The position numbers and the translations under genes were made by a program. A stretch of DNA of 63,750 bases, filler included, from Licmophora abbreviata (Eukaryota), in assembly GCA_900291995.1 (NCBI GenBank). It is 9 parts of 9 records of this genome, joined end to end, with 100 filler letters (N's around TTAATTAATTAA, not from the genome) between each part and the next. Parts side by side here need not be neighbours in the genome. Positions count along the whole stretch, not along the records: positions 1 to 6,399 come from OLMU01005321.1; positions 6,500 to 10,921 come from OLMU01005323.1; positions 11,022 to 15,196 come from OLMU01005324.1; positions 15,297 to 28,078 come from OLMU01005326.1; 5 more parts are not named here. One strand, 5' to 3'. The notes under the pieces are model-generated. The model did no database searches, was not told the DNA's origin, and saw only the letters and a list, made by a program, of their open reading frames with translations. Shown here in pieces: positions 214-26,066 of this stretch (positions are counted from its first letter, which is position 1; each line of letters begins with the position of its first letter).

Positions 214-2519
214 CTATTGCCAAGTCGAGCCAAGCCACCCCTCCCGCAAGAAATGATTTGGAATCTCTGTGTTGCTGCCGACGCGATAATTTCCCACGGT
301 ATACCCAGCAATCCACAGTCTGGCAGCTTCGTCTTTCAATTGCTCTGATGGAAACACAGTCGTGGGATAGATTTCGCATTCACTGACAACATAGCGCACG
401 GCAGCTTTGCGTTCCTCCAAGGACGCTCCGCCCCGAACCAGTGGCGATGCAGCGCTTATACCAACGAGAATATCGGTGCGGAACATGTCCTTGTTGGCTC
501 CAAGCGCTTCTGCAATTTCAACGACTCGATCCCAGTCGAGCCAATCAAAGGGTATTGCTTCGTAGTGACTCCCTTCGGCAAAGGTACCATTGCGGTACAA
601 AAACCCACCGCTTGCTCGATCGCTCTGGTTCTCACTCACATAATTCCACTTGGCCATCCACACACGACCAAAGATGGTGAAGACTCCAAGTTCGATAGGA
701 GGTCTGTCGAATTTTTCAATCTCGATGAATCGCTCTTCCACCACGATCCCGGGCTTGACGTTTTTCAATGCAAAGGACTCAAAATACTTAGGCTTCGCGT
801 GAATGTTCGTTGCCAAAGACTGGGCAATCACACGAGGATCGAGGTCGTTGTTGGTATCGAGCGTCAACAAACTTCCTGCAGAATTGTAGCTGGTAGTATT
901 GGTTTCGGGATCAAAGCCAACAAGCCAGACACCCGTGGTTTCGGAATGATGACTTGGCTTGGCGACAAAGTCCATGTCGCTTGGAAGGAGACGAAAGATC
1001 TGTTCCGTTTCTTCATCAGTTCGACCACTATCCCCTAATTCGTGCGCATATCGAAGCGACATCGGACGCGGCTGGTCGATTCCAACAGTCGACAGCCATC
1101 TCTTGCGTGCAACCTTGTCGACATAAAAGCTGAGACTTGTTCGCTCGAGAGTCTGGCGATAGGCAATGAGCTGTTCCCAACCTTCGTCGCCTCGGATAAG
1201 CTGACTGATGTCAAAGTCTTCAAAGAGCAAGAATGGCTTGGTGGTCATTGGTGAACCTTCCTTCGACTTTTCCAACTGGTATCGACCAAGGTTGACCCCG
1301 CCACTGGGAACTCGAGAATAGTAAACGGAGTAATTTTGCGATCGAGAGGCGTAATGCTAGCCAAGTCCATGCCATCAAACAAGGCCGCGAAGTAGGTTTG
1401 AATGACGTTTCGTTCCCTCACGGGGACGAGCTCAAGATACGTCGCATTGAGATCCAGTGATTCTGCGAGATGGTCCAACCGATTGAGCTCGATCTTCAAC
1501 AAGTCTATGATCTCACTCGACGGTGGATGACCATGTAGCCAGCGTACTTCTTCGGAGCTATTGGACAAGGATTTGTTGGATGCGTCGACAGTAAACTCCA
1601 GTGCCACCGTTTCTCCTTCGCCGCGCCATTGAAACGAGAAGTGCCTTGGTAACCGTTCGACGACTCCTTGGCTCCGCAACGCGTCGTCCATGCTCCTTGG
1701 TATACCAAATCCGTACGAAACATAAATCTCATCTCCTTCTTGAATATCTTTCGATGCAATAATCTCGACACTTTGATTATACTTTGGTCTCGTAACTTTG
1801 GTATTCTGCCATGCTCCGTTGCGGTTGTTGTACAGGCCGTAGAATGGCAGAATTGCGGTCTGGAAGTGCTCCGAGGGAGTCATAATGTTGGGAGACGGAT
1901 CTCCCACCGCCAGGAAGAGTGCTTCCAGTCCCAATAGATCGTGTTCGACGTCGCCCCCACACTCCTCCTTCCACCACTGCAGAGGTCGACGAACGTCGGA
2001 GGGAGGAATGTTCTTGCCCAGTATCGCCGCCATCAATTCTTGTCCCGCCCTACTCCATGCCATGAGAGGCTTTCTACCATACGTTCGGAGCACCCGTACA
2101 TAGGGGGCATAGTGAGCGCTTCCTGTCGACATGTCGTCGAGCCATCGCAACTCTTGCTTCAACAATTCGATCGTGAAACATGGACTCTCCTGCTTGTTGT
2201 GTGGATCAGTATCGTCGGGGGGTGGTAGCATGACCAGCTCCCAAGGGATGGACGTCAGGACCGTCCCAGCGTCAATGGGCGCAGTCGCGTAGATACCGAC
2301 TCCCTTGTCGACATCCTTAGGATCCACACGACGAATCTTCTGTCGCCCATCGAATCGGCCGCCGTGGGTGTGAATCCAGGAGATTAGATTCTCAAACAGC
2401 GCGTCGTCGTCGAGAGGCTGATCGTCGTCGTCTTTTGCGAATGTTCCCTCGGCTACAACACGCCACACCAGCAACACCCAAGAGATCCATAACACCGATA
2501 TATGCCTTGAGAATACCAT
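214..2519 (-). CDS. Secreted SET-domain methyltransferase / TupA-like ATP-grasp fusion, copy 1 (split by a 1-nt frameshift at ~1296-1299)
   Basis: ORF 1245..2519 has a signal peptide and SET motifs (GIYATAPIDAGTVL, YNNRNG, DIQEGDEIYVSYG). ORF 214..1275 has ATP-grasp motifs (YVDKVARK, FVAKPSH, GIVVEERF, MFRTD, SECEIYP). Adding one G to the GGGG run restores VAGVNLGRYQLEK, colinear with the intact paralog at 8059..10380. Confidence 0.8.
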
Positions 2520-2597
2520 GGTCGAGCTTGAAGATTCATCACAGAGAAGATGACACGAGTGTTCTCATCTTGTTTTTTGTTTTGGGATGTTTTTCGG

Positions 2598-2683
2598 TTT
2601 CCCGCCAAATCGCATCGTGACTCAAAAATCCCGTGACTGAAGATCGGATGTGCATCGTGATTGATTCAAAAAGCCCGTGACTA
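2598..2683. promoter_or_regulatory. Divergent promoter with an E2F-like TTTCCCGCCAAA site and an imperfect ~30-bp direct repeat carrying four CGTGA cores
   Basis: TTTCCCGCCAAA at 2598-2609. GCATCGTGACTCAAAAATCCCGTGACT starts at 2612 and GCATCGTGATTGATTCAAAAAGCCCGTGACT at 2652. Lies between the head-to-head SET/ATP-grasp and sulfotransferase genes. Confidence 0.4.
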
Positions 2684-3132
2684 TCGAGCCCGGACTTTTT
2701 TGAAGCTTGTAGGATGTTTACAGATCATATTTCTCTACGATAGCATACTTGGGCCTAACAGTGGTGGTACCGTGCTGTAGACATAATGCGTCTTCGTTAT
2801 AATCGTAACCAGCGACGTCTGTGTCAATATGATACATGGCATGATACACAGGTCATATGCCAATGCAGAGACAAGACATGGTCCGCACCGGACGGCCACT
2901 CGCTATTTTGCGGTGCGCGATGTGAGTGCGCGACATTGACACACAACACTTACTTAATGCAAGAAACTCATAGGGCACCGCCGTCGGCATTGCATTGTGC
3001 ATGCAGTGGATCCTTGCCGCGTTTCTTGATGCCTTGACTTTGAAAAACAACGAGTTCGCAAAAGAGACTTGAGAAGTCCATTTCGCGCACTGCTCGTTGA
3101 GAGGAGTTCCAGCTTAGTCTCGCCACACTACG

Positions 3133-4134
3133 ATGCGACGCATCCCTCCGTTTGCGGCCCTGCTTGTGGGCCTTTTGATCCTCGCTGTCCTCTTGCAGGT
3201 CTGGATCCACATTGCTCTGGTGCAAGAAGAGCAAACTATATCCATAGAAAATCCCGTTGGGATCAAGGAGGACAAACAGCGCAGGATTCCGAACGTGATT
3301 CTCGCCGGCCCGCCCAAGTCTGGATCGACTTCCCTGGCCTACTATCTCGTCAGGGAGGGCTATGCGTGTCTGTCGGACAAGTTTCCCGGCGAACCACACT
3401 GGTACGATAAGGAAGTGCACTACTTTGACGTCACTGCTCGATACGCAAAGGGTCTTGACTTTTATCGCAATCGATTTGTGCACTGTGGTGAACACCCCAT
3501 CATTATGGACGGCACGCCCACCTACATTATGGAGCCCGCGCGGATTCGGGAGACCTATGACCTGCAAGGAACTGCCGAGGATCTCAAGATACTATTCGTT
3601 TTGAGAGAACCCGTCAGTCGAGAATTATCGTGGTACAACAACATGGTCAGGGCCTTTCCATGCTTCTATTGCTCGGCAGTGCGCAGATGGTCTTGGTTCA
3701 ACGATCGTATTTCCTTTGGCGGTCTGATATCCTTTGACGAGTACGTGGAACGAGCCGTCCATCGCAAGGGCTTAAAGGGAACGTATGGCAAGGCCCTCGA
3801 AAAGTGGTTGCGTTTCTTTCGACGCGATCAAATACTGATACTCTCGTACGACGAGCTGCAGAACAGCGAAGTTGACTTTTTGACGCGGGTTCATGAATTT
3901 CTAGGAATTCCGATCAAGGCGGACATGGGACTCGATCACAATAATGCTGCAGGGAAGACAGCCACTCGATTGCCGTCTTGCTTCTCACAGGCTAAACTGG
4001 CTGAGATATTTGATCCTTCCAATGAACGATTGTTCGCATTGCTGGACGAACACCCCGGACCACCCATGGAGCAGCGCCCGTTTCCTAGATTTACGACCAT
4101 GAATTGCTCAACCGACAAACAGAGAATAAGGTAA
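3133..4134 (+). CDS. Type II membrane (Golgi-type) PAPS-dependent sulfotransferase, heparan-sulfate sulfotransferase-like
   Basis: N-terminal TM anchor, 5'-PSB loop GPPKSGSTSL, KEVHYFD, 3'-PB motif LREPVSRELSWYN, and FRRDQILILSYDEL. Intronless, 333 aa. Confidence 0.88.
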   Translation: MRRIPPFAALLVGLLILAVLLQVWIHIALVQEEQTISIENPVGIKEDKQRRIPNVILAGPPKSGSTSLAYYLVREGYACLSDKFPGEPHWYDKEVHYFDVTARYAKGLDFYRNRFVHCGEHPIIMDGTPTYIMEPARIRETYDLQGTAEDLKILFVLREPVSRELSWYNNMVRAFPCFYCSAVRRWSWFNDRISFGGLISFDEYVERAVHRKGLKGTYGKALEKWLRFFRRDQILILSYDELQNSEVDFLTRVHEFLGIPIKADMGLDHNNAAGKTATRLPSCFSQAKLAEIFDPSNERLFALLDEHPGPPMEQRPFPRFTTMNCSTDKQRIR

Positions 4135-4431: not shown

Positions 4432-5970
4432 CTAGTTGTTCATATGCAATATGGTCAGAACAAAGACAGTGAGGAAACCCATGAAAGCCTGAAAGTGCAT
4501 GAACAGAAAGAACATCTTTCCCGTTTTTAATGCGTAAATGATTGCAGCAAAAAAGTAGAGCGTCAACATCCCATCCACGATCGTCGACAGTTCCACTTTC
4601 GTGGCCAAGTACTTTCGCCCCGCAAACTTCTTCGCGGGATCCTTGATGTTGAACTTTGGCGTGCGTACAAAGGGTGAACGCTTGCCCATCCAGGCTTGTG
4701 TAACAGCAATCGAACAGTGCAGTGATATCCCGACGGAAAAGGTTTGGTACACCGGGTACATGGCACCATACGCGAGTAGTTTCTTCCAGTAGCCGCCCTC
4801 CCTTCGGGCGGGCGCAGCCACGTTGCCAAAGTAGTGGATCAGAAGAAAAAGCAGCGAGTTGACAAGCGGCAGACATCCCAAAAGCTCTCCGTCGATCCAG
4901 TCGCCGTCGTGTAGGAGCAGCACGGGTACGCTGAGTGTCAGCATCAGTAGCAAGGCGACGTAAGAAGAGCTTGCGAGAAGATGCAGCGATGCATGCACCT
5001 TTTGGCCCAGACTCAATTTCGATTTCCAGATTGTAGGCAAAAGCTTGCGAGCCACTTCGGCTTGTCCCTTTGTCCAGCGAAACTGCTGTGACTTGAGGCT
5101 GTTCATATCGGAGGGCATCTCGCCAGGTGTACCGATCTCGTTGAGGTACCTGATTTTCCAGCCCGCCATTTGAGCGCGAAAGCTGAGGTCGACGTCCTCC
5201 GTGATAGTATCAGCTTGCCATCCACCGGCGTCCAAGATGGCTTCCTTGCGCCAAATTCCGGCCGTACCGTTGAACTGACAAAGGTAGCCACCCTTGTAGC
5301 GACCCTCCTGCTCCACACGAAAGTGAGTGTTAATGGGAACGGTCTGCACGCGAGTAAGCAAGGAATAGTCTTCGTTGAGCGTTTCCCAGCGCGTCTGCAC
5401 GCAGCAGATTTCAGGATCCCTGAAGCAGAGCATGGTCCTGCGCAAGAAGTCTTCTCGGGGCAAGAAGTCTGCATCAAAGATGGCGATAAACTTGCCCTTG
5501 GCGAGGTGCATACAATCCTGTAGAGCTCCAGCTTTGAAACCTTGTCGGACTGGACGACGTATTTGCCTAATGTTGAATCCCTTGGCCGCATACTCTGAAA
5601 CCTTTCGTCGGACGATCTTAACAGTCTCATCAGTACTGTCGTCGAGCACCTGCACCTCGAACTTGCGCTTGGGCCAACGCTGCTTCACGATGTTGTCGAT
5701 AAGGTCCTCGACGACGTAAACTTCGTTGTAGATGGGCAACTGGATGGTGACGAAGGGGTATGCGGAGCTGTTCTTGCCAGGATTGTCGTCTTGTTTCGAT
5801 GGATCGCTCTTGGGGTCGGTACAGAAGTATAAATGCACTTGTACAAATCCGTAAACTGCCACAACGCCAATGGCAAACATGAAAACCCCAACAGATAGAT
5901 ATTTTAAGCACGTCGATAGAGCCCCCGTCAGGTCAGCCCCCAGCTGGAGGACAGAACCTTGGAATTCCAT
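4432..5970 (-). CDS. Processive GT2 beta-glycan synthase (CslA/CslC-like or bacterial cellulose-synthase-family-like), copy A
   Basis: QLPIYNE, DDSTD, FKAGAL, DADF, TED and QQFRW form the D,D,D,QxxRW signature, followed by C-terminal TM helices and RTPKF. First ATG at 5970. Intronless. Confidence 0.92.
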   Translation of the reverse strand: MEFQGSVLQLGADLTGALSTCLKYLSVGVFMFAIGVVAVYGFVQVHLYFCTDPKSDPSKQDDNPGKNSSAYPFVTIQLPIYNEVYVVEDLIDNIVKQRWPKRKFEVQVLDDSTDETVKIVRRKVSEYAAKGFNIRQIRRPVRQGFKAGALQDCMHLAKGKFIAIFDADFLPREDFLRRTMLCFRDPEICCVQTRWETLNEDYSLLTRVQTVPINTHFRVEQEGRYKGGYLCQFNGTAGIWRKEAILDAGGWQADTITEDVDLSFRAQMAGWKIRYLNEIGTPGEMPSDMNSLKSQQFRWTKGQAEVARKLLPTIWKSKLSLGQKVHASLHLLASSSYVALLLMLTLSVPVLLLHDGDWIDGELLGCLPLVNSLLFLLIHYFGNVAAPARREGGYWKKLLAYGAMYPVYQTFSVGISLHCSIAVTQAWMGKRSPFVRTPKFNIKDPAKKFAGRKYLATKVELSTIVDGMLTLYFFAAIIYALKTGKMFFLFMHFQAFMGFLTVFVLTILHMNN

Positions 5971-6399: not shown

Positions 6400-6499
6400 N
6401 NNNNNNNNNNNNNNNNNNNNNNNNNNNNNNNNNNNNNNNNNNNTTAATTAATTAANNNNNNNNNNNNNNNNNNNNNNNNNNNNNNNNNNNNNNNNNNNN
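6400..6499. other. Assembly gap spacer (N-TTAATTAATTAA-N)
   Basis: 100-nt spacer with stops in all six frames. The same spacer occurs at 10922-11021, 15197-15296, 28079-28178, 39110-39209, 43729-43828, 58885-58984 and 61792-61891. Confidence 0.97.
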
Positions 6500-6518
6500 A
6501 CACACACACACACACACA
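6500..6518 (+). repeat. (AC)n microsatellite at contig edge
   Basis: acacacacacacacacaca directly after the gap; it probably caused the contig break. Confidence 0.85.
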
Positions 6519-8058: not shown

Positions 8059-10380
8059 TCACTCTTCGGCAAAGTCGACTGACAAGAAGCCCTTCTCTTG
8101 AAATTCCCGAGGGACCTCTGTATTCTTGATCGAGCGAAAGTTGCCCACGCGGTAACCAGCTATCCACAACCGTGCTGCTTCGTCGGATATGCGATCATTG
8201 TCAAACACGGTCGTCGGGTACAACTCGCATTCCGAAACCACGTATTCAACCTCATTGATTCGATCCTCCATAGTTGCCCCCTCTCGCCACGACGGCGAGG
8301 CAGAATTCACCCCTACGAGCACATCCGTTCGAAACATATCCTTGTGGGCTCCCAGCCGCTCGGCAATACTCACGAGATGCGGCCAGTCCACCCAATCAAA
8401 CGGCATTTTGTCGTTCTCGCCACCCAGCGCAAAGGTTCCATTCCGATAGATCCAGCCACCACGACCCACGTGACGGTTCTTGACATACCTCATCTGCCCT
8501 GCGTAGACACGTCCCCATATAGTGAAGATATTAAACTCGATCGGCGGTCGGTCGAACCTATCAAGCTCCACATATCGCTCTTCCACGACTATCCCAGGTT
8601 TCACATTCTTTAGCGCCCAAGACTCATGCCTCTTCGCCTTTGCCTGGAGGTTATTGGCAAGCGCTTGTGCGACCTGGCGATTACTGAAAGAAGCTTGATT
8701 ATTAGCTTCTTTCAGCTGACGTGCGTCGGAGGTAAACATAGTCTTGTTTGATGTCTGGTTGTGGCTGATAAGCCACACGCCCGTCGTTTCGGAATGATGA
8801 CTCGGCTTGGCAACATAGTCCGCCACGTTTGGTAGCAAATCTAGAATGAGCTGCTCTTCATCGTTTAGTTCACCTCTGTCCGTGAGTTCGAACCCATACT
8901 GAAGAGCGTACAAGGGCGGCTGATCGATCCCGATAGTCGGCAGCCAGCGTTTGCGTGCAACCTTGTCCACATAGAAACTTAGTGAAGGTCTCTCTAAGAC
9001 ATTGCGATAGTCGAGAATGTCCTGCCATGCCTCGTTTCCATGAATCAAGTGAGACATATCGAAATCCTCGTACAGTAGGAACGGCGGTTCTGTGTGCCCC
9101 TCTTCTAGCTGTTGTGCATCTGTTGACAGCTTGAATTGAGCCAAATTGATGCCTGCCACCTCGTAGTCAAACAGAGTCCAGTTGTTTGTAGTCCACACCA
9201 GAGTCGCTCTTGTCGCAGCCAAGATGCCTTTGTATAGCGTAGATATATACTGCCATATCAATTCTTTTTCCTGAAAAGGCACACTGACTAGATAGGTGGC
9301 GTCGGGATCGATGACTTCCGCCAAATGTTCCAGACGCTCCCTTTCAAGTTGCAGCAGCTCCATCGCACGCGACGAAGGCGGATGGCCGTCAACCCACGCT
9401 ACTGTATTTGGACCACCACGGTGGCTACTATCGAAATCAAAGTCGACGGAATGAGTTGTATTGGTGGTGGCGTGATCGTTCATGCGAATCGAAAACCGTC
9501 TTGGATACTGTTCCAGGAATCCGAACGATCGAAAGAAAAGTGCTGTTCCGATAGGGTTGCCTAGGCCATAGGAGACATAAATTTCATCTCCAGCCTCCAG
9601 ATCTTCAGGAAACACCCCAATTTTGATGTCTTTCCCCACCTCCGACTCCATGATGCGAGTGTTGTATCGCACTCCGTCGCGGTGGTTGTATGCGGGATAC
9701 AAAGGAAGTAAACCGCTCTGATGCGTCGTTCCCGACGGCGTCAGAAACGCCGGCGATGGGTCCGTGACGGAGATCGTCAACGCTTCAAGCAAGATGGGAT
9801 CAGTCTTGTCATAGTCCCCGCAATGATTTGTCCACCATTCCAGTGGCCGTTGGAAGTCTTGCGGTGGTAAGTTTCCGCCCAGCACAGCCTTCAGCAAGTC
9901 TTGGCCCTCTTGCGACCACCCCAGCAGGGGCTTTCGGCCCAACCCTCGCAGCATACGGAGGTGCGGCGCGTATTTGGAGGAGCAAGTTTCATTCCAACAG
10001 TCCAGCTGCATCAGTTCTCGCTTGGCTGCTCGCACACTCTCGCACGGGTCGTCCTGTTCAGGATCGTCCGGGGAAAGCACGAGATCGTACGGAATGGAAG
10101 CCAGAATTGTGCCTTTTGGAATGTGCTCCGTCGCGAACATGCCGTAGTACTTGAAATAAGAATCGTACTGGATCTCCTGTCGCTTGTCGACTCTACCGCC
10201 ATTCTCTCGGATCCAGGTCATGACATCTCGAACGAGCTGAGGGTATCCATCATCCGTATCCAGCTCGTATCCTTTCTCCGAGTGGAACTCATCGTCCGAG
10301 ACCGTCAGCGCACTCGCTCCCGGAAGAGCGAGAGCTACAGTGAGACAGAGCAGCAGTATCTTGATACAAGCAGCGACCAT
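8059..10380 (-). CDS. Secreted SET-domain methyltransferase / TupA-like ATP-grasp fusion, copy 2 (intact)
   Basis: 773-aa single ORF. Signal peptide (…PGASA/L), SET motifs GMFATEHIPKG, YNHRDG and EAGDEIYVSYG, and a C-terminal ATP-grasp with YVDKVARK, YVAKPSH, GIVVEERY, EFNIFTIWG, MFRTD and SECELYP. Confidence 0.85.
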   Translation of the reverse strand: MVAACIKILLLCLTVALALPGASALTVSDDEFHSEKGYELDTDDGYPQLVRDVMTWIRENGGRVDKRQEIQYDSYFKYYGMFATEHIPKGTILASIPYDLVLSPDDPEQDDPCESVRAAKRELMQLDCWNETCSSKYAPHLRMLRGLGRKPLLGWSQEGQDLLKAVLGGNLPPQDFQRPLEWWTNHCGDYDKTDPILLEALTISVTDPSPAFLTPSGTTHQSGLLPLYPAYNHRDGVRYNTRIMESEVGKDIKIGVFPEDLEAGDEIYVSYGLGNPIGTALFFRSFGFLEQYPRRFSIRMNDHATTNTTHSVDFDFDSSHRGGPNTVAWVDGHPPSSRAMELLQLERERLEHLAEVIDPDATYLVSVPFQEKELIWQYISTLYKGILAATRATLVWTTNNWTLFDYEVAGINLAQFKLSTDAQQLEEGHTEPPFLLYEDFDMSHLIHGNEAWQDILDYRNVLERPSLSFYVDKVARKRWLPTIGIDQPPLYALQYGFELTDRGELNDEEQLILDLLPNVADYVAKPSHHSETTGVWLISHNQTSNKTMFTSDARQLKEANNQASFSNRQVAQALANNLQAKAKRHESWALKNVKPGIVVEERYVELDRFDRPPIEFNIFTIWGRVYAGQMRYVKNRHVGRGGWIYRNGTFALGGENDKMPFDWVDWPHLVSIAERLGAHKDMFRTDVLVGVNSASPSWREGATMEDRINEVEYVVSECELYPTTVFDNDRISDEAARLWIAGYRVGNFRSIKNTEVPREFQEKGFLSVDFAEE

Positions 10381-11750: not shown

Positions 11751-12590
11751 TTACACGTTCATGAGCGAATAGTTGGATCCCGCAGTGGTGCCCCTCGACG
11801 CTTGGTTTGTCTTGCCAACTTTGACATAGCGACGTCGGCACAAGGACAAGCTCCAGACAGTCACAAACAAAATGGGCGTTACCACTAGCAACGACAAGGC
11901 TGACACTATTGCCGTTTCAGCTGGTCGATTCTTCCACGACAACGACTCGTAGATACTGTCGTCGTCGGTTTCGACATCTCCATCTTGACGAAGCGGATTG
12001 CCAATGTCAGCGTAGGCGTGAACGACGGTCCAAATCAAGTAAAGCGCCGAGAAAATAATGACAAAGACACAATGCTTCAATCGAATCGGAATCTTGTTGA
12101 TGACAAGTCCCTCCAGGACTATCAACACGGCAAAGCCCCCGTGCTTCATATAGCTCTCGTATGTGACGTTGTGGTCGGGTGAGTACTCCACGATCCAGAA
12201 CAAGGCCGTCACAACCAGTTCGGTGCAAGCGGCCGTCGAGAACAGACCCCACACCAATCGAACGACGAAAGTAGGTCGCGGCTCGAAGCCAGTTGGCTGC
12301 TCGGGAATACCAAACAGCGTCAAGACAAAGGAAAGCACAAAGTAGAGTATCGAAATCGCGAACGCCCAGTGTGTAAGATAGGCCAAGTAGAACTGAGGAT
12401 AGCTGTAGGCGTACAAGTCTAGGCCTAAAACTTGGAGGGCCCAGCCTGTGAAGAGAAGTTTGGCGAGAAAAGAAAGCCAGAATGGCTTACGGTTGAAAGT
12501 GGACTCGACGTCAATTGTCTTGTCCTGGAAGTCTTTCACTCCAAAGAAGGAGAGCTTCCAATCGTCTCGGACTGGACCAAAACAGGGCAT
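11751..12590 (-). CDS. Multi-pass membrane protein, FAR-17a/AIG1-like (rolling-stone-like)
   Basis: About six TM helices, YLAYLTHW motif, HG motif and a D-S-I-Y-x-x-L-S-W segment. First ATG at 12590. Confidence 0.7.
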   Translation of the reverse strand: MPCFGPVRDDWKLSFFGVKDFQDKTIDVESTFNRKPFWLSFLAKLLFTGWALQVLGLDLYAYSYPQFYLAYLTHWAFAISILYFVLSFVLTLFGIPEQPTGFEPRPTFVVRLVWGLFSTAACTELVVTALFWIVEYSPDHNVTYESYMKHGGFAVLIVLEGLVINKIPIRLKHCVFVIIFSALYLIWTVVHAYADIGNPLRQDGDVETDDDSIYESLSWKNRPAETAIVSALSLLVVTPILFVTVWSLSLCRRRYVKVGKTNQASRGTTAGSNYSLMNV

Positions 12591-15296: not shown

Positions 15297-18200
15297 TTTG
15301 AACGCATGTCCGAAGACTGCATCGGTGCTATCGTGACGGCACAGAAGGAAAGCTACAAGCTCGGACTACAGGAGGTCGGTCCTGAAGTGCTCTGGGCTGG
15401 CGTGGTCGATCGACCCGAAAAAACAAAGTCGACCTTGACACAGTATGGTGTAACTTGGAGAAAGACACTGCAGGTGCTGCAGGAAATGTTCCGAGACGAG
15501 CAACCAGAACGGGCAGGGCTGACTGCCTTCTTATCGGCGAAGAAAAAGGATGACTTGCCGTTCAGTAAAAAGCTCAAAAAGTACATGATTGACGCTGGAA
15601 AGCTGGCCGACAAGATGGAAAGCACGACGATTCATTCGGAACATGTACTGCTAGCTATTTTGGAGTATGATGCCGATGCGAATACAGCAGCTGTTCCAAA
15701 TGAGGATGACCGAGTCTGTGGGGGGCTGGCTGTGCTGCATCGTGTGGTGGATCCGGAACTTTCGGCATTGGATTTCTGTACAGCTCTCCTCAACAACATG
15801 AAGGACGAGCAATCGAATGAAGCCGAGTTGGTGGCGACGGGAAGTCCGTCGGGAAGCAAGAAGACTCCGACATTGGAAGAGGTTGGAATCGATCTCACAC
15901 TGCTGGCCAAGCAGGGACAGCTAGATATCGTGGAAGGACGAGAAGACGAGATTCGTATGTGTCTACGTACCCTTATTCGACGACGAAAGAACAATCCGTG
16001 TCTCATGGGAGAACCAGGGGTCGGTACGTATCGAGGAGCGAGGGCGCAATTACACCATTAAGTGTTCCAATGAGTCCACCCTCACGTTTCGTCGTTCTTC
16101 CTCATTCCTACAGGTAAGACAGCAATCGCGGAAGGTATCGCACAGATTGTCGCGGATCCCGAAAAGTGTCCCCCGAAACTGCAGGGGTATCGCATTGTAT
16201 CGCTGGAGCTGGCGAATCTCGTGGCAGGCACGAAATACCGCGGTGAGTTTGAAGAGCGGATCCAGGCTATTCTGCAGGAAGTCATGGATGAAAAGGCGCC
16301 TCCGACGATTCTCTTTATCGACGAGATCCATAATTTGGCCGGAGCTGGTAGTGCAGAAGGTGGGGGCCTCGATGCTGGTCAGATTTTCAAACCGGCCTTG
16401 TCGCGCGGGCAGTTACAACTCATAGGCGCAACGACCATTGCAGAGTATCGAAAATACATCGAGAAGGATGCAGCACTGGAAAGAAGGTTTCAGCCACTGA
16501 TGGTCAAGGAGCCCAGCACTGAACAGACAATGAGTATCCTGGCAGCCATCGCTCCGCGGTACGAGAAGCATCATGGAGTCAAGTATTCGCCAGAGAGCTT
16601 GGAGGCAGCTGCAAAGTTAAGTGAACGCTACATAACAGATCGATTCTTGCCGGACAAGGCGATCGATCTGTTAGACGAGTCGGGTGCGTTGATGCAAATG
16701 GATGCTGAGGAAGACGAGACCCCTACGTAACGGAGCACACAGTGGCAACTATCTTGTCCGAATGGACTTCGATTCCTATCGGCAAGCTTGAAAGGGGTGA
16801 AATGGATAGACTTCAGAATTTGGAGGCTGAAATGACAAATCGTGTGAAAGGTCAGGGACGAGCCGTTCGAGCGGTTTCACGCGCAGTAAGACGTGCTCGG
16901 AGTGGATTACGAGATACTCGACGACCGATCGCTAGTTTCTTGTTCTGCGGTCCAACGGGAACGGTGAGTGGATAGATTGGGCGGTTCTGTCTCTATTCGA
17001 CGAATGTGATAACTCATAGCGTGGCTGCATCTATATTATAGGGCAAGACAGAGCTTTGTAAAACGTTGGCGGCGACGTACTTTGGAAGCGAGAAGGATAT
17101 GATCCGTATCGACATGTCCGAATACGGCGAAAAACACACCGTCAGTCGGCTGACAGGCCCCCCTCCAGGTTACATTGGATATGTAAGTCAAGCGCGCCGC
17201 TGTTGGAGGCTGTATGATAAGGTGATTGTCGTCTCTTACTGTTTCTATCTTTTCAAACCTGCACGACAATCTATATAGGAAGAGGGCGGTCAACTGACCG
17301 AGGCCGTTCGTCGTAGTCCGCATGCCGTGGTACTGCTAGATGAGCTGGAAAAAGCGCACAGCGATGTCCTCAACATTTTGCTTCAAATCATGGAGGATGG
17401 AATGCTTACCGACGGCAAGGGACGAACTGTGAACTTTAAGAATACAATTCTGGTCATGACCTCGAATGTCGGAAGCAAGCGAATCTTGGATGTGTCTCGA
17501 GGTGAAACTTGGAGAAGTTCGGCGACGCCCGATAGCGACTCACCGCCCATTTCTGAAAGGGACGTGTCCTCCATTGAACCGATGCGACCAGATGAGGTTT
17601 TGTCGAAGATGCAGAACAATCCGGCTGCCATGTCACTAATGATGGAAGCAGCTTCCGATCCAGATCTCATGGGCGCTATGCAGACAGCCATGGGTGGCTC
17701 TCCTGCAGACTTGCTCAAGGCGGGTCGAAGCAATCCAAAGGTTGCAGAGTTCCTGCGAAAGCTGTGGCATGTCATTGACACAGGGAGTGATGTCGCAAGG
17801 GTGCCGTCTCCACCTGCTAACGGTAAGAAGCAGCCCAAGTCGGCCATAGAAGATGCCGTGTCGAAATGGACAGCCGGTTCGGCCGAGAAATTCGCATCTG
17901 GCTTGGTAGAAAAGATTGAAGGCATGATTCCGTCGGGATCGAAAGACGGAAGTAACACAGCAGGGCAGACGGCCAATGAAAAACTGTACTTGGACATGTC
18001 AGCTGTCGTCAAGGAAGAGCTTGAGGCCAGTATGAAACCTGAATTGCTGAATCGAATGGACGAAATTGTAATCTTCTCGCCGCTATCCTCCGAAGACTTG
18101 ACGATGATTGCCGGCCTTCTTCTTCAAGACACGGTCCGACGTGCTAAGGAGGAATGCCAGATGGAACTTACAGTCAAGCAGGCGGTTATAGATCAAGTCA

Positions 18201-18518
18201 GAGATGAGGGAAGCGTGAACGCCTCGCAGTTTGGCGCCCGTCCCATGCGACGGGCGGCGCAACGGTTCTTGGAAGATACAATCAGCGACGCAATCGTTCG
18301 AGGCTTTTCTCGGAGAAGGTGATTCTGCCTCTGTTGACCTAGCCAGTGTTGCAGTGGATGGTACATGTACAATATTACTAACTCGGGAGGACGGAATGAC
18401 GCTCGAAGTCCAAGTCGAAGACGGAAGTGGTGGTATTGGCTCTGTGGTTCAGGGGAGGGGCGTTGCGTCGAGCATCAACGGAGAGGTGACCCCCCAAACA
18501 GAGACGGTTGGACTATAG
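15297..18518 (+). CDS. clpC: ClpC/ClpB-type AAA+ chaperone (5'-truncated by gap; 3 introns; 2 apparent 1-nt frameshifts)
   Basis: FERMS Clp-N start, [59 protein letters not shown] and FGARPMRR. Introns at 16024-16113, 16964-17041 and 17183-17278. Frame changes at ~16722 and ~18306. Confidence 0.88.
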
Positions 18519-18597
18519 CTACATATCGAAACAGGCCGCTGCAACCGGTGCATCTGCAAAAGAACGTCTTTCTCCACCGCTAAGATAGTAGAGTACG

Positions 18598-19891
18598 CTA
18601 TTGCTGAGTTCCGACACACACTTCCTGCCAGATTGTGAGGAATCTCCGTGCGACCTGCGGTCGATCCTCCGCTGTCTCGCCGGGTTGCGTGTATCCTTGT
18701 ACCAACGCTTCGTGCGAAAAATGTACTGCCAGCTTGTTATCAGTGAGGCGACAATCCCCACTCCTCCATCCATGTTCGAGTAACACATCTTGTCCTTCGA
18801 CAACAACATCGTGAGCACTGTACGCTTCGTCCTTGCGCATGTCAATCAAAGCGAACATGTCGCTCCACATTGTTTCGTTTTGCGAATGCGCCAGCCCATT
18901 CGTCAGGATAGCGTAGGCCATGCGTGTCCACTCCTCCGATCGGCCACTCATCAAACACGGAATACCCGCTGTCTGAGAGCCTTTGACTACCGAATATACC
19001 GCAAAATCTCCGTTCTGAGGCGGATCGTTGGTCGGAGGCGCTGGACTGAGTGGGAAAACGTCATAGTCGCTCATGAAACCACCTCCGACCGCTGCCATGG
19101 CGATCCATCGCAAGAAACAAAGCTAGGCGTGTAATTGGATTGTGCAAGTCATACACAAGGGAAAGCTGTGAGAGTTGCGGCGTGAAAGGGGCGACTCGAA
19201 CACAATCGTTTCTGTCAATCGTACTCACCTGATTGTACACGATGTTGCCCCCCTTGCCATCGATTCCCAACAGAGGAATTTTTCGCAGCTGCTCCACGTA
19301 GTCATCGTATTGCGGATGTCTCTTGGCATCCTGGAGCGTCAACACCCGTGGGTCCCATCCAGCTTCCATCCACGCTGCCTTCCATGTATCAATCAAGGCC
19401 GTGTCGGCAGCCTCGCTCATTTGCGTTCCTTTGTGTTCAGCACTGATGCGTTCAAAGAAGGTATACATAATCGGACGAACTGTTGGTGCCTTTACAGGTT
19501 TCTCTTCTGGTGGAGGTCGCGAGCGAAGATTATTGGTAGTGGATGATTGAGCGGAAACAGCAGTGATGGAGTCATCTGCTGCCGCCGTCGCTGGGGGCAG
19601 TGAGCTCGATGTGCCTGCCGTCGACCCTTCTACAGCTACCACTTGTGGAACGACCGTGCCCCTTTGCTCAGAGTGTACCGGTACAGGAGGGGGAGGGCCG
19701 TACTGCCCTTGACCGATCAGGCCCAGTTCTCTCATCAACACAAAGCAGAACGTGGCCGTAATGGCCGAGTAGAGATAGTTTCGAATTCGCTCGTGCTGCA
19801 TTTGCTTCATCAGAAGTTCTGAGCGCCCAGAAGAAGACAAAGAGGCGCTCGCAGACGATGGTGAGGATCCAGGGGATCGACGACGAGGCAT
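18598..19891 (-). CDS. Type II membrane protein with DxD motif, putative GT-A glycosyltransferase-like
   Basis: N-terminal TM and Pro/Ser stem, then [15 protein letters not shown]…[23 protein letters not shown]…WSDM…VHFSH. GT-AG intron 19123-19228 joins the two ORFs in frame. Confidence 0.7.
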
Positions 19892-20459
19892 TCAGGAGGC
19901 AGAATCAAACGCTTGCTGCGTACAGAGACGGGTCGTTGCGGTTTTGTGACGCTAGTGCTCATTACTCCCTTCAGGTCATCTCCCAAAATTGAAAATGACC
20001 TCGAGGCGTCGCGCCAATCTCGAGGTCGCGAGTTCCGTATCGTGTGGTCGGAGTATACACACAATTTTTGTCGTCCACAGCAACTTCAAATGAAAAATGG
20101 TAATCATACTTGTATATAATTAATTTGCTGTTCAGATCTGTTAGTCATCATATAAACTATATCAGATCATAATACAATTACAGATGGAGTCTGCTGTCTA
20201 TTGGCATAAGTGTAATCTGATAAAAAGGAGTCCAATGCCATTAAAGATTGAACTTGGCTTACAGGACTCGCCAGCGCGCAAGTATCCAATATTTCATATT
20301 CGTAGACGAATGTAGTGAGCTGGCCCGCGTGTTGTTGTCGCCGTGTTTCGTCATTGAATTTGAGGTTTTTAGTTGGTGAACATGCAGCGAAACATCGACA
20401 GCACAGCACGTGCCCAACCCTCATACGGCCTCACTGATGAGAACAAAGACGCCTTGACT

Positions 20460-21995: not shown

Positions 21996-22664
21996 GTCTT
22001 CGCAAGTTGTCCCGTGTTTTCATTGTCGAGAGATTTGATTCGCCCACTGCGGTAAGAGGTAGCGTATGATAGTTGAGAGTGTGACGATTGAGGTATTCTT
22101 GTAATCTGTTTTTAAAAAAGCGCAATGAATTTTCTATTATACCGGCGGAGCCCTCCTTGTTCTTGAACTGAGGACGTGCATTTCTGAGTACCCTCTAGAA
22201 CAAGCTAGTGTCTGCGCTTGTACAATCGTCAGGGATTCGATCCTTTCAAAGCCCCTCGTATCCTAGTTTTCATCTGCGCTCGAGTTGTATCATTCGTCAC
22301 TCAGGAAGGATCCTTCAAAATCGCAAGCAGGCCCGGTCGATCCGCGATGTTGGAAGTCGCGGATCGGGCCGTTTCAAAAAGTCAGTATATACGTTGATTT
22401 ATATATAATATCAATAAAGATACACATATAGCTATAAGTGAATTATTCGTGGTGCGCCTTTAAACTTTGGCCAGAAATATTATCGCGGCGCGCGCCAATA
22501 TCGAACGTAATTTGTAATTTTTGTAATTTTGACACCGATGCCAAGCGGCAAAGTTGTTGTTGTCTTGGGACCATGACGGTTTTGACGGGGGAGCAAAAGG
22601 TTTACGGGTGCTTGTAGTGGATGAACGTGCGTAGACTGCGGCGACCAGCTCTGTCACCAATAGA

Positions 22665-23939
22665 ATGAATAAGCCGTGCGACTGCCTTCTCGCGGCTGTC
22701 GTGTGGATGGCACTTATTTTATCCGCACTCCCGGTCGCGGCCAAACTACGAATCCATGGAGAGCTGCCAGAGAAACCCCAGTTCCTACAAGAGCTCCTAG
22801 CTGTTGATCTCAATAAGCATAATCCCTTTGCTGATACGAACAGAGAATGGATAAATGCACTTGCAGAAGTAGTTCGTCACGCCCAAGCGCCATCCTCGTG
22901 GTACGGGTGGCTGTACCAGAGACTCTACTCATCTGCCGCTGCCCCACCGCAGCACCCAGCGACCTACCACTTCAGCACCATCGACGCTCGCGACGTACTT
23001 CGGCCCCTGCTCAAGCGCACTCATGGTCTTCATCTCGACGAGGAAACGATCCATCTCCTCTTCAACGATGGTGACATGGGTCTCCCTTCGAGCTACCATT
23101 CGGACAATGACAAGGAACGTGAGGGGATTCTGCACAAAATGGAGACGAAGAGTCAGGTCTACGAGGCTGCCCAGCGTCTTCAAAAGATCACCAACGGGGG
23201 ACTTCTCTTGTCTATTGGACAGACACCTGCGTACCTGACCGAAATGATGCGAGCGCTCGAGGAGACGAAAGCAACCAGCACGGGGACCGACATTTTGGAA
23301 ATTCCCATCTCTGGGCGACCGGACACAGTTCGCGAGCCACACGATAGTCGACACAAGGCCTACAACTACGACAATCTCATCACTCCCGACCGAGAAGCCT
23401 TCTTCCGCCAGATTTTGACCGATCGAGGCTTTTATCCGAAGCGCTTTCGACCCGGTGATCGTGTATATCTGCTGGACGTATCGAAGGGACCGTCCATCGC
23501 CCATTTGCTCCTATTCACAGCTCGGTGGTTCCAAGCGGAAGACATTGTATTACCAGACATTACACTTGTATTGTTGAAGAAACAAGCTGACGTGAGACGA
23601 CCAGAAAACGTCACGTGCGGGTACAGTTGTTTGAAAGTGCATGCGCTGCCGGAACTGCTCGACTTGGAGATTAGCGACGACCTTCGAATCGATATTGACA
23701 TTGAATTTCTCGATATGGACAAGTATACAGTAAAGACCTTTGACTCTCTCGAGGGAAACTTGAGAGTAGTGGCCCCATTCAATGCGATCGACTGGACCAA
23801 GCGCTACAATATGGTCCTTTCGTCTTATCCTACGCCAACGGCTCAAAAGATGCTCGAAGAGTATCGCAGTTATGCGCTAGGCCGCATCGTTTCGGAGCAG
23901 CAAGGCGCAATCGATGAAGTGCGAGGGGAAGAGCTCTAG
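22665..23939 (+). CDS. Uncharacterised secreted/ER protein, family U copy 2 (C-terminal EEL)
   Basis: Signal peptide (…LPVAA/KLRIHG), paralog of 6575..7888, ends GEEL* (ER-retrieval-like). Confidence 0.8.
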   Translation: MNKPCDCLLAAVVWMALILSALPVAAKLRIHGELPEKPQFLQELLAVDLNKHNPFADTNREWINALAEVVRHAQAPSSWYGWLYQRLYSSAAAPPQHPATYHFSTIDARDVLRPLLKRTHGLHLDEETIHLLFNDGDMGLPSSYHSDNDKEREGILHKMETKSQVYEAAQRLQKITNGGLLLSIGQTPAYLTEMMRALEETKATSTGTDILEIPISGRPDTVREPHDSRHKAYNYDNLITPDREAFFRQILTDRGFYPKRFRPGDRVYLLDVSKGPSIAHLLLFTARWFQAEDIVLPDITLVLLKKQADVRRPENVTCGYSCLKVHALPELLDLEISDDLRIDIDIEFLDMDKYTVKTFDSLEGNLRVVAPFNAIDWTKRYNMVLSSYPTPTAQKMLEEYRSYALGRIVSEQQGAIDEVRGEEL

Positions 23940-24171
23940 ATGTGCAGTGACGCTCTTCGACCTTGCTCTACTGTGAACAAAAAACACTGTTGTCCCAGGT
24001 GTGGGGTGGGTATACGGTGGCAAGCGCGATTCGATTGTCATGTGACACGCAGAGCTACGTACTATCCAACTAGAGGCATGCAACACGGGGAATGGGCTTC
24101 TGCATCGTGTAGTAGTAGTACAAACAATTTTCTAGCTTCTTATACTCTTCACAGTCCAACTCATTCGAGGA

Positions 24172-26066
24172 TCAGACGTCCCCGCGAAGCCGGCGGACGC
24201 AGTTCTCTTCCCGACTCACACGGCCAGATTCTCCTCCTTGTCCGTCGTCGCCACGGCCAGGTCCTCGGCACCGAAACCGGGTAGGTTGCTCTTCCTTTCT
24301 CTGCGCTACTGGTTGGACGGTAACTGTGTTACTCGGAGAAGTGCTGGGGAGTTGAGTCGGATAGACTGACGGCATTGCCGATGGAGTCGAAGAAGGAACG
24401 GCGGAAGGGGAGCTCGTGGGGCCACTTGTTGGGCCGAGAATCGCCATGCTCACACCCATGATACGGCCAAGGGATGGAACTCCTTCCTTGTCAACGACAT
24501 TGAGATGCCATAGACCTGGTAACATGATGGTTCGGCCGGGCGTATACACTTCAATTGTCGTAGGATCATAGACCCGAAAGTCTAGATTGAGCCAGCGAGC
24601 GTCGCTGTTCCGCGCATGAGTCATGGATCCGGTCTTGGTAGCTGTCACCTTTGCAATATCCGTGGGGACGGCGACTGTGATACGAAAGGCGCGGCCGGCA
24701 AGAAGGTTCTTAGGCCAAGACTCGATAGCAGGTCTTGACGCCGGCTCGCCAGTCTTGGGATCGAACAAGTAGCCGGGATAGTATATCTGCCCGTTGTGAT
24801 TCTTCAGTGGTCCTGGTGCTCCACCTCCAGCCGAGAACACTGAGCCGTCAGGCAGTACAAGACCGGACGAATGGTAGAGACGTGGGATACTCTGCTTTGG
24901 GCCACTATAGACCGTGTCATTGATAGGGTCCCAGATTTGAGCTTCGCGAACGGCGCAGTCGAGCTCGTTCCCCTCGCTGCTAGCATTCTCGGTACAGCCA
25001 CCATTGATAGCGACCCGTCCATCCGGCAGCACAGCCATTGCGGCATTCATACGATTCTCGCCGAGAGCTTGTTTCCTTGTAAATAGCGGATTCGCACTAT
25101 CCGAAATATCGACACTCCACAGATTGCCCGTGTCATCCAGCATAACGACTCGATCAATATCGTACATGATAGCCGCTCCGAGCTTGTCGGATCGGAAAGG
25201 TCGAGTTCCGACCTTAACGATGCTGCCATCTCCGTCAACACGAACATGGTAGACGTCGTAATTCTGCCAGTCCGAGATAATAATAAGAATATCACCCTTG
25301 GAGTTCACATGGACGTGAGGGTACCACCATGCTCTCTGGGACGACCTTCGTTCCCTCAGGGCAGGAACGTCCGCACCTGGGAGGGCGCGAAAACCAGAGA
25401 CGGGATCCCAAATTTCAGGAATTGAGCTGGATTCTTTCTTCACAGACCTTCCCCCCACGATAAAGATGCGCCCATCCGGTAAGTTAACGCTAGTTCCGTA
25501 CCACCGTGGATACCTCATGTCTCCCAGCGGGTGTTTCCGAATCTGGTGCGTTTCAATGTCGAACTCCAGAACATCATTGACACCATTGTTGTCGTCATCG
25601 TCACCGCCCATTATCAAGATATTTCCCGTGGATATATCCATCGACAGAGTTGAGCAAAAGATATTCACGTCCGTGTTGTGTCTCATTCGCACGTGATTCG
25701 CCGATAGATCATGCCTGCCCGAAGTTGTGTCCCAGATTTCGTAGTCGCCTCGTCCGCCCTGTCTGGCGCTCTTGTTGGCGCCATACGACAGGACCGTCCC
25801 GTCTGGCAAGAAAATCACGTGAATCGGTATCACCTCCATGTTGAATACGTCTCCCCATCGACCTAGAGAGTCATCTGCGTCAGGGTGACAGTAGAAGCGC
25901 CGCCGATGGAAGTTAGAAGGTGAGCAATCTAGCACTCAAATCACATAGCTAAGGGTCGGTTCGACCGGCAGAGGTCCTTCCATCACGAGGGAAATTGCTT
26001 ACCGCCCACAACAGTTCTGAAGAGAAAGGCCAGCCCCAAAAGGCAGACGTTTGACACTGAGAACAT
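24172..26066 (-). CDS. Secreted copper-radical oxidase (AA5, galactose/glyoxal oxidase-like; Kelch propeller + C-terminal Ig-like domain)
   Basis: Exon 1 (26003-26066) encodes the signal peptide MFSVSNVCLLGLAFLFRTVVG; intron 25875-26002. Motifs NIFCS, RWYGT, WWYPH, RLYHS and SMTHA, plus a Pro/Ser/Thr tail. Confidence 0.85.

Follow-up and report, generated by a model that had tools for sequence, protein, structure and literature searches.

Positions 214-26066 of the window, by which we mean the whole 63,750-nucleotide stretch of Licmophora abbreviata DNA analyzed here, carry a run of secretory and membrane enzymes that we read as a glyco-island specific to this diatom lineage and located in its nuclear genome, assembled stepwise from imported bacterial and native secretory genes with local duplication. 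We consider this reading about evenly poised between right and wrong. Most of the island products probably act on cell-surface glycoconjugates, with more than one substrate among them, and the tightest unit of the island would be a GT2 synthase gene beside a gene of the pair that we call unk. This adjacency occurs twice in the region, and GT2b and unk2 share a strand and a contig.

Gene content and enrichment

Twelve genes were counted in the region (Table 1). Ten encode secretory or membrane modifying enzymes, as against none of the ~19 genes downstream in the window. An earlier note on this DNA had put the secretory genes at about 10 of about 13; the ten are confirmed as secretory or membrane proteins, while the total is 12 and the ten collapse to seven families, with three paralog pairs (GT2, unk, and SET/ATP-grasp). 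Counted by family, seven of nine inside the region compare with none of the ~19 genes outside (Fisher p = 3e-05, for boundaries set post hoc). Given those boundaries and an assumed background rate, the region holds more complementary enzymes than chance gives: where 5-10% of genes are assumed to be of this kind, 0.0005 to 0.06 such runs are expected by chance genome-wide. The enrichment in glycan-related secretory enzymes that had been proposed holds, and it is strengthened by the gPRT/CriT fold of the unk pair and by the SLC35A1/FKRP-like fusion. The note described the rest of the window as housekeeping; a housekeeping ClpC gene lies inside the region. The predominance of intronless genes, offered as a further mark, fails as one, since long uninterrupted frames occur outside as well (e.g., 1151 aa at 28675), and the AA5 and DxD genes have introns.

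Table 1. Genes and contig linkers at positions 214-26066, in coordinates of the whole stretch
Feature	Position	Strand	Remarks
SET + ATP-grasp copy 1, N-terminal hydrophobic leader	214..2519	-	40% (SET) and 53% (ATP-grasp) identical to copy 2
Type II membrane sulfotransferase, heparan-sulfate 3-O-sulfotransferase-like	3133..4134	+	PF00685 9.6e-15; best PDB E 2.7e-11
GT2a, processive GT2 synthase, 512 aa, ~5 TM	4432..5970	-	D,D,D,QxxRW intact; 74% identical to GT2b
Artificial contig linker	6400..6499		identical linker structure
unk1, secreted gPRT/CriT-like protein, 437 aa	6575..7888	+	39% identical to unk2
SET + ATP-grasp fusion copy 2, 773 aa, predicted signal peptide, intact	8059..10380	-	Pfam SET + fold
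Artificial contig linker	10922-11021		identical linker structure
Multi-TM membrane protein, 279 aa, ~5 TM	11751..12590	-	no Pfam match
SLC35A-type nucleotide-sugar transporter/LicD-FKRP-type phosphotransferase fusion, 695 aa	13012..15099	+	PF04142 2.3e-53, PF04991 2e-08
Artificial contig linker	15197-15296		identical linker structure
ClpC/ClpB-type AAA+ chaperone, several frames (introns), housekeeping	15297..18322	+	5' end cut by linker
DxD protein, 395 aa, one intron 19228-19123 (106 nt)	18598..19891	-	GT-A/Caps_synth-like as lead only
GT2b, processive GT2 synthase, 537 aa	20382..21995	+	motifs intact; named best matches Bacteroidota
unk2, secreted gPRT/CriT-like protein, 424 aa	22665..23939	+	fold match; 670 bp behind GT2b
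AA5 radical copper oxidase, ~607 aa	24172..26066	-	PF07250/PF09118; signal-peptide exon 26066-26003, 74-nt intron

Contig order

The breaks at 6400, 10922, and 15197, previously taken for gaps, are artificial linkers, copies of one 100-letter unit (44 N, a 12-base word with stops in all frames, 44 N) that occurs eight times in the window, and the region therefore consists of four contigs. This raises the alternative of an assembly artifact, in which the four contigs are not neighbors or the bacterial-looking genes are contamination. In its favor, no exact end overlap was found at 6400, 10922, or 15197, and the GT2 and unk genes have bacterial best matches. Among the listed run pieces matched to 15297-28078, none bridges two genes, and no read or contig spans the region's three linkers. 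Against an artifact, the linker at 39110 joins true neighbors, as its flanking ends overlap by exactly 44 bp and together give one 562-codon frame. The three paralog pairs are moreover each split between two of the four contigs, a pattern that chance joining is unlikely to produce and that supports a real neighborhood; from paralog sharing and the overlap at 39110, the contig order across the region's three linkers is probably real. ClpC, the DxD gene, GT2b, unk2, and AA5 all lie on a single 12.8-kb contig that contains spliceosomal introns, so the four-gene core of GT2b, unk2, DxD, and AA5 is independent of the linkers. Near-identical pieces of these five genes co-occur at similar low depth in four of four runs from three studies, one of which could be the source data; the small shares in those runs (0.02-0.17) carry no habitat information. 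Composition is host-like, with GC3 of 0.57-0.68 inside the window span of 0.48-0.73. We regard an artifact as very improbable.

GT2 synthases

Judged by their domain (PF13641 at E 1.7e-20 and 6.4e-19), their D,D,D,QxxRW motifs, and several TM helices, GT2a and GT2b are intact processive GT2 synthases. By domain type and size they may be CslA-like. All 120 matches listed for GT2b are 46-54% identical to it, and the six with a taxon name are Bacteroidota; no named diatom is among these 120, below which diatom GT2s of less than ~50% identity could fall. A pattern scan of prokaryote genomes with GT2b and one of viral contigs with a bacterial GT2 found nothing. GT2a and GT2b form a sister pair on a long stem (SH-aLRT 100) in a quick unrooted tree of 44 of the 120 listed matches, and as this tree holds best matches only and has no outgroup, a bacterial donor of GT2 is suggested by best hits. 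The pair has diverged to dN 0.18 and dS 0.71. At the one bacterial GT2 locus examined, the operon partners of the relative (GT87, a second GT2, and DUF2064) are unmatched anywhere in the window, and for this locus we reject the import of an entire operon. As far as the accessible text of one report goes, neither T. pseudonana nor P. tricornutum yielded a Csl gene (PMC3091534).

The unk1 and unk2 proteins

A structural model of unk2 (pLDDT 87.6) has its best match in 8a0c (Z 12.6, rmsd 4.2, 216 aligned; reproduced), followed by 7shg (Z 11.3, rmsd 4.1, 211 aligned), with the next match at Z 6.5. This gPRT/CriT match outscores those to nucleotide PRTases by ~5 Z units and takes in the helical extensions, and on the model the unk proteins have a PRTase-like core with helical bundles as in gPRT/CriT ribofuranosyltransferases. 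Foldseek of unk2 returned no PDB match at E<=0.001, an unk profile found nothing significant among PDB sequences, and Atlas placed unk2 with unnamed clusters only (0.84-0.85). Set beside the split acidic pair (D680 and E818) and phosphate-binding loop of CriT, the unk proteins have a conserved Asp246 and a conserved Gly-x-Ser loop, but by motif order their first loop contains no Asp. Both N-termini are hydrophobic and signal-like by hydropathy. Plastid targeting requires an aromatic residue after the cleavage site, and the predicted site in unk is not followed by one, which makes this destination unlikely.

No relative of unk2 emerged from a word-index search. A profile search gave 62 matches, and the family is otherwise found in small-genome Alphaproteobacteria; most relatives carry no taxon name, however, and some of these could be eukaryotic. 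One match sits in a Ca. Deianiraeaceae MAG. Within that order the family occurs in 7 of 400 genomes, and within the class in 11 of 401 (both counts including the seed genome), and all the bearing genomes are 2.5 Mb or smaller. A viral library search with unk2 returned three uncharacterized giant-virus proteins, while a pattern scan of viral contigs and tblastn against phages and plasmids found nothing. In a quick unrooted tree of 52 rows, with matches under 270 aa left out, unk1 and unk2 are sisters on a long stem (SH-aLRT 100), and dS between them is saturated. On the strength of their host contigs and bacterial best matches, GT2 and unk may have been acquired horizontally; the trees are unrooted, and in its tree the unk pair lies among relatives that mostly lack a taxon name.

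The bacterial relatives bear on a second alternative, namely that the genes are unrelated neighbors in a fast-evolving compartment, that unk is not a glycan transferase (e.g., it serves extracellular nucleotide or ribose-phosphate salvage, or protein modification), and that the other families act on separate substrates. Neighbors scanned at 18 bacterial unk loci, mostly in 1.5-kb flanks, included no glycan genes; one relative carries an ankyrin-repeat fusion, and a hydrophobic N-terminus, as in proteins that symbionts export, is present in 35 of 46 full-length relatives. Pennate diatoms widely carry the ATP-grasp family (Epithemia, Fragilariopsis, and Pseudo-nitzschia) with varied neighbors, and if 20% of genes are assumed to be of this kind, ~6 such runs would be expected genome-wide by chance. 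Set against this are the margin of the unk fold match over nucleotide PRTases, with its helical extensions, the double GT2-unk adjacency, and an N-terminal HAD-like domain (DUF2608) on 8 of 49 unk relatives, with HAD motif I in seven of these eight, which repeats the PRP-gPRT layout of known enzymes. We judge this alternative unlikely. Were it correct, this would still be a case in which genes with, apparently, two different bacterial origins have gathered and duplicated at one diatom locus.

Other enzymes of the region

The sulfotransferase has both PAPS-binding motifs. Among solved structures, the transporter half of the fusion is closest to the CMP-sialic acid transporter (E 5e-27) and the LicD half to FKRP (E 2e-06). 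By its sequence the AA5 gene belongs to the AA5 radical copper oxidases, with the Cys, Tyr, Tyr-His, and His motifs, a Kelch propeller, an E-set domain, and, at motif level, the Cys-Tyr cofactor and copper ligands; no plasmid relative reaches 29% identity. A GT-A type for the DxD protein is an Atlas lead only (0.87-0.89), and the multi-TM protein may resemble AIG1/FAR-17a.

Copy 1 of the SET/ATP-grasp genes is read in two overlapping frames (1245-2519 and 214-1356), with a frameshift around position 1290, within a run of G, that is either a sequencing error or a real break. The SET domains of the two genes score E 5.6e-07 and 2e-04. An ATP-grasp fold is assigned to the other domain from a model (pLDDT 92.3) whose top structural matches are ATP-grasp ligases (Z 13.2-11, ArgX at 13.2); the domain matched no Pfam family, its profile found nothing significant among PDB sequences, and one relative has a sub-threshold TupA match (E 4.5e-05). 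At least 3 of 57 matches have the same fusion, and dS between the two ATP-grasp copies is saturated. SET domains are protein-lysine methyltransferases, so the methylation that had been placed in a glycan pathway is unlikely to act on glycan; these proteins would most likely modify secreted proteins by lysine methylation and amide ligation.

One pathway or several

The activities that the genes suggest can be set out individually. The GT2s may draw on a cytosolic nucleotide sugar to polymerize a beta-linked chain of the mannan or glucan type and feed it into the secretory pathway, the sugar being conjectural. By analogy with SLC35A1 and FKRP, the SLC35A-LicD fusion may import a CDP-alcohol and move the alcohol-phosphate onto glycan. 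Going by their motifs, the sulfotransferase would add sulfate from PAPS to an acceptor, and AA5 would oxidize a hydroxyl and yield H2O2. The unk proteins might take ribose-5-phosphate from PRPP and place it, or else a related phosphosugar, on an acceptor hydroxyl, with donor, acceptor, and compartment all putative.

The earlier note saw in these activities one pathway, and in its stronger form this would be a co-regulated cluster that makes a GT2 backbone bearing sulfate, alcohol-phosphate, and ribose(-phosphate) and oxidized by AA5, a galactosaminogalactan-like arrangement. The complementary activities and strong local enrichment speak for it, as do the two GT2-unk adjacencies and the fusion of a transporter to its own transferase; the Hib capsule polymerase, in the accessible text of PMC10299916, has two chemistries, namely ribosyl transfer and polyol-phosphate transfer. 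A glycan-type neighbor also occurs at three of six distinct long ATP-grasp loci of relatives (PAE at L005, LicD at L019, and GT92 at L020/L021). Other observations point away from it. The synteny check that the note proposed, run on the ATP-grasp family alone, found another region gene at 0 of 32 loci (tblastn E<1e-3), on mostly short contigs of which only seven exceed 6 kb and with homologs 30-52% identical; no diatom relative of GT2 or unk turned up for the same comparison. The paralog pairs were duplicated at different times, as GT2 dS is 0.71 and unk and ATP-grasp are saturated, and ClpC interrupts the region. No distinctive upstream 6-8-mer is common to the region genes in a word search of low power, the operon partners of the bacterial GT2 relative are unmatched, and one SET/ATP-grasp copy is frameshifted. 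We find a single co-regulated cluster rather unlikely and prefer the stepwise island with several substrates. A single block duplication is rejected, as dS and orientations differ among the paralog pairs.

A more specific proposal is that a PRPP-dependent ribosyltransferase family was imported from endosymbiont-type bacteria and put to use in the secretory pathway with an imported GT2 and the SLC35A-LicD protein as a self-supplying polyol-phosphate transferase, the product being a sulfated wall or mucilage polymer whose ribosyl and polyol-phosphate groups would resemble those of the Hib capsule or of teichoic acids. This is speculative, and we think it improbable. If true, a eukaryote would have a ribofuranosyltransferase that acts on glycans, a diatom would have a polysaccharide pathway encoded as a cluster, and PRPP would have to be supplied to the secretory lumen. 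A literature search that covered few subscription papers found no eukaryotic gPRT, no diatom polysaccharide gene cluster, and no diatom CslA-type gene.

According to the accessible text of a 2015 review, the complete fine structure had not been worked out for any diatom EPS, and high ribose in diatom wall fractions was ascribed to contamination (PMC4584364). The locus offers candidates in a processive synthase type that was not detected in two model diatoms and in the gPRT-fold proteins, with which one assay could test whether ribose genuinely belongs to some diatom glycans. The models also suggest a likely chemistry for a symbiont protein family that lacks annotation and combines a gPRT fold with DUF2608 fusions.

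Comparison with known systems

The closest structural counterparts of unk are CriT of Hib Bcs3 (PDB 8A0C/8A0M) and the Thermobacillus composti gPRT domain (PDB 7SHG), and the match spans the catalytic domain and flanking helices. Like these, unk has an invariant Asp and a Gly-x-Ser loop after the third strand and Ser-x-Arg after the second, but it is only 8% identical and has no sequence-level match to them. Asp680 in the CriT Ser-Arg-Asp loop matters for activity (PMC10299916, in part); this loop becomes Gly-Gln-Thr/Ser-Pro in unk by motif order, not residue superposition, and the catalytic Asp680 seems unmatched there. The known enzymes must act in the cytoplasm to reach PRPP, in the accessible text of PMC11127046, a location with which the predicted signal-like N-termini of the diatom proteins conflict. 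Unlike the bacterial proteins, unk1 and unk2 have a eukaryotic host and lack a phosphatase domain, and no HAD phosphatase partner (PRP/CrpP) is found among the other genes of the region either.

The GT2 pair shares its domain (PF00535/PF13641), D,D,D,QxxRW motifs, length (~510-540 aa), and ~5 TM helices with the Bacteroidota "cellulose synthase family" GT2s and with plant and green-algal CslA/CslC, the mannan and xyloglucan-backbone synthases. The latter have a GT2 domain instead of Cellulose_synt (PMC3091534, in part), and the operon partners of the former are absent from the diatom window. Both halves of the transporter-LicD protein are matched in the animal ribitol-phosphate pathway (SLC35A1/SLC35A4 with FKTN/FKRP), in which CDP-ribitol is imported by SLC35A1 and A4 (PMC8192872, in part). 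In the diatom the transporter and transferase occupy one chain, and the CDP-alcohol could be choline, ethanolamine, glycerol, or ribitol. Secreted SET domains are shared, by description rather than sequence, with the BacSET methyltransferases linked to diatom wall formation (bioRxiv 2020.11.23.393678, in part), and the ATP-grasp fold is shared with TupA-like proteins, though the diatom domain falls outside all Pfam families. At the level of the whole locus, the fungal galactosaminogalactan cluster (Neurospora; PMC11356417, in part) is a eukaryotic precedent in which a synthase and modifying genes for an adhesive exopolysaccharide lie together; it has no families in common with the diatom locus, and the fungal cluster is mutant-tested whereas the diatom one is known from genes alone.

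Composition of the glyco-gene region

Our assessment gives roughly an even chance to a real glyco-island, in which bacterial imports, apparently from two sources, and native enzymes act on surface glycoconjugates; a single pathway is not implied. The window is diatom-type nuclear DNA, since one of its genes has named relatives in Epithemia, Fragilariopsis, and Pseudo-nitzschia, and GT-AG introns are present. The flagged region holds 12 genes on four contigs, slightly fewer than the roughly 13 of an earlier note, though all ten genes of the kinds that it described are present; the other two encode a multi-TM protein with no Pfam hit and a ClpC-type chaperone. The ten genes represent only seven families, because the GT2 synthases (74% identical), the secreted proteins unk1 and unk2 (39%), and the SET/ATP-grasp fusions (40-53%) are each paired. 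No glycan-modifying enzyme is annotated among the ~19 genes counted outside the region, several of which lack annotation, giving 7/9 families inside versus 0/19 genes outside (Fisher p 3e-05, region boundaries post hoc).

Two further features were observed. In ClpC, the D2 region is interrupted by a long insertion, which matches STI1/HOP DP weakly (E 6e-05). An uninterrupted 1151-aa frame 2.6 kb past the region contains FG-GAP repeats (E 3e-21) and a single strong TM segment, and is predicted to encode a surface or adhesion-type protein rather than a housekeeping one.

Coordinates of features in the window and in loci of relatives
Feature	Location	Strand
SET/ATP-grasp copy 1	214-2519	-
Copy 1, stop/ATG overlap	1245-1300	
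GT2a	4432-5970	-
unk1	6575-7888	+
SET/ATP-grasp copy 2	8059-10380	-
ClpC D2 region	17279-18322	
GT2b	20382-21995	+
unk2	22665-23939	+
AA5 radical copper oxidase	24172-26066	-
Repeat-like stretch, contig 4 end	27980-28060	
FG-GAP frame	28675-32130	
Unannotated frames	35735-42694	
Contig-end overlap at the 39110 linker	39066-39253	
LicD-cytidylyltransferase-like fusion	L019:5585-7204	
GT92 gene and ATP-grasp relative	L020:5433-9013	
DUF2608/gPRT-fold fusions	L033:667-2577; L042:535-2529; L043:535-2529	

Continuity of the contigs

Each junction between the nine contigs of the window is the same 100-base artificial linker, and the three linkers within the region separate contig ends without overlap, as would be expected if the contigs were not neighbours. 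We consider such an artefact, or contamination, very unlikely: all three paralogue pairs are divided among the region's contigs, the linker at 39110 hides an exact 44-base end overlap, and the DxD-GT2b-unk2-AA5 core sits on one contig, independent of any linker. The split pairs and the overlap indirectly favour a real contig order. As the overlap merges into a 562-codon frame, the surrounding unannotated frames, which have no Pfam hit, may form one large gene. Near-identical pieces of GT2b, unk2, AA5, DxD, and ClpC were recovered at depth 2-8 from four of four runs (three studies), which argues against contamination, although one of these runs may itself be the source. Contig 4 ends in a variable, repeat-like stretch that shows many indels in each of the four runs, and reads extend past the contig end in two of them.

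Linkage, duplication, and regulation

A tblastn search over 32 metagenome loci that contain ATP-grasp relatives (30-52% identical), only seven of them longer than 6 kb, detected none of the region's other genes. Another glycan-type neighbour is present in three of six distinct long ATP-grasp loci. This synteny evidence is weak both ways. In L020 and likewise L021, a GT92 gene and an ATP-grasp relative stand head to head. Overall, we hold it rather unlikely that the genes are unrelated neighbours.

The unk and ATP-grasp pairs have saturated synonymous sites and the GT2 pair does not, so the duplications differ in age, and the upstream sequences of the set share no marking word. The proposed build-and-decorate cluster retains its enrichment in glycan enzymes; one pathway for all genes we rate as rather unlikely. 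Among eukaryotes, the fungal GAG cluster already exemplifies an exopolysaccharide pathway encoded by clustered genes (PMC11356417, in part). Incomplete searches of main texts found no diatom polysaccharide cluster and no eukaryotic gPRT, though supplementary HGT/CAZyme tables could list these families; the accessible parts of PMC11468063 and PMC2173943 contain nothing further on these genes.

The GT2 synthases

The D,D,D,QxxRW motif set is complete in both GT2 proteins, which also have ~5 TM segments; their domain type and size suggest "CslA-like, mannan-type" enzymes. Scoring was restricted to the 8000 best word-sharing candidates for GT2b, and the 120 relatives listed were all 46-54% identical; the six named to taxon are Bacteroidota, Saprospiraceae included, and none of the 120 is named as a diatom. 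No Csl gene turned up in T. pseudonana or P. tricornutum in a published survey (PMC3091534, in part). GT2a and GT2b are sisters on a long stem in a quick tree (44 of the 120 matches, no outgroup), have host-like GC3, and are under purifying selection (dN 0.18, dS 0.71). A Pseudoalteromonas plasmid carries a 41% identical GT2 relative beside GT87, a second GT2, and DUF2064, none of which has a counterpart in the window.

Modifying enzymes

At their C-terminal end, the SET fusions carry a domain with an ATP-grasp fold (pLDDT 92.3; ArgX Z 13.2, rmsd 3.5, 208 aligned). Among its 57 relatives, at least three are fused to SET and two to Methyltransf_24, so the domain pairs repeatedly with methyltransferases. 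Besides its fusions to Methyltransf_24 and to SET, the diatom domain occurs in long multi-domain forms of 1278 aa (P0185, P0214, and P0218). The substrates of SET methyltransferases are proteins. Copy 1 is frameshifted in a G run near 1290, where the SET frame's stop codon overlaps an ATG of the ATP-grasp frame in bacterial-operon style; a frameshift is indicated because conserved ATP-grasp residues start upstream of this ATG. In the diatom Seminavis, SET methyltransferase expression coincides with wall formation (bioRxiv 2020.11.23.393678, in part).

Among solved structures, the transporter-LicD fusion comes nearest to the CMP-sialic acid transporter (E 5e-27) and to FKRP (E 2e-06). Given these similarities and the import of CDP-ribitol for ribitol-phosphate transfer by SLC35A1/A4 (PMC8192872, in part), the fusion is likely to import the CDP-alcohol that it uses. 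In the eukaryotic-looking locus L019, a fusion of LicD with a cytidylyltransferase-like domain lies 4.4 kb from an ATP-grasp relative and would make a second instance of LicD combined with its donor supply. Both PAPS motifs are present in the sulfotransferase, whose nearest relatives are heparan-sulfate 3-O-sulfotransferases. The AA5 gene includes a signal exon and encodes the catalytic motifs of its family, and the DxD protein gives only leads, at Atlas scores below 0.9, to Caps_synth/GT-A families.

The unk pair and known phosphoribosyltransferases

Searching 1.84 billion proteins with a profile of unk1 and unk2 gave 62 relatives, the best 30-35% identical; one of the 62 is located in a Ca. 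Deianiraeaceae MAG. The family matches 7/400 genomes of that order and 11/401 of its class, all <=2.5 Mb. In a quick tree the two are sisters (SH-aLRT 100) within a 31-row group (98). The AlphaFold model of unk2 (27 sequences, pLDDT 87.6), compared with 48,161 chains, best matches residues 639-929 of 8a0c, the PRPP-dependent ribosyltransferase CriT (Z 12.6, rmsd 4.2, 216 aligned), then residues 260-566 of the gPRT domain 7shg (Z 11.3, rmsd 4.1, 211 aligned). Nucleotide PRTases follow at Z <=6.5, and a second search left the ranking unchanged. Giant-virus proteins (Harvfovirus, Faunusvirus, Klosneuvirus) also match the fold at E<=0.001.

Several observations weigh against simply labelling the pair gPRT. 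Judged by motif order, the CriT loop Ser678-Arg679-Asp680 corresponds to Gly-Gln-Thr/Ser-Pro in unk. Of the two important acids, one therefore seems absent, while the counterpart of Glu818 is an invariant Asp. Unk has no sequence-level match in the PDB. Known gPRTs need a cytoplasmic location for access to PRPP (PMC11127046, in part), whereas unk1, unk2, and 35/46 full-length relatives have hydrophobic N-termini. Unlike gPRT-PRP enzymes, the diatom pair has no phosphatase domain, and 18 bacterial unk loci show no glycan gene among the scanned neighbours (17 selected ORFs, plus 29/32 ORFs including the matches themselves). For these reasons we do not file unk1 and unk2 as gPRT members, and describe them as resembling PRPP-type transferases by modelled fold. 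This pair is the most valuable part of the region, being assayable and bearing on the reality of ribose in diatom wall fractions (PMC4584364, in part).

An N-terminal DUF2608 domain is present in 8/49 relatives scanned, with HAD motif I in 7/8 and motif IV in 5/8, and two further fusions were met in genomes. Three loci of small-genome Alphaproteobacteria (L033, L042, L043) encode DUF2608 with HAD motifs joined to the gPRT-fold domain, a candidate exported phosphatase-transferase family of symbionts. The gPRT-PRP enzymes are the same kind of PRPP-dependent glycan enzyme as CriT (PMC11294581, PMC11127046, both in part), and the DUF2608-fused relatives resemble them in their phosphatase-then-transferase layout.
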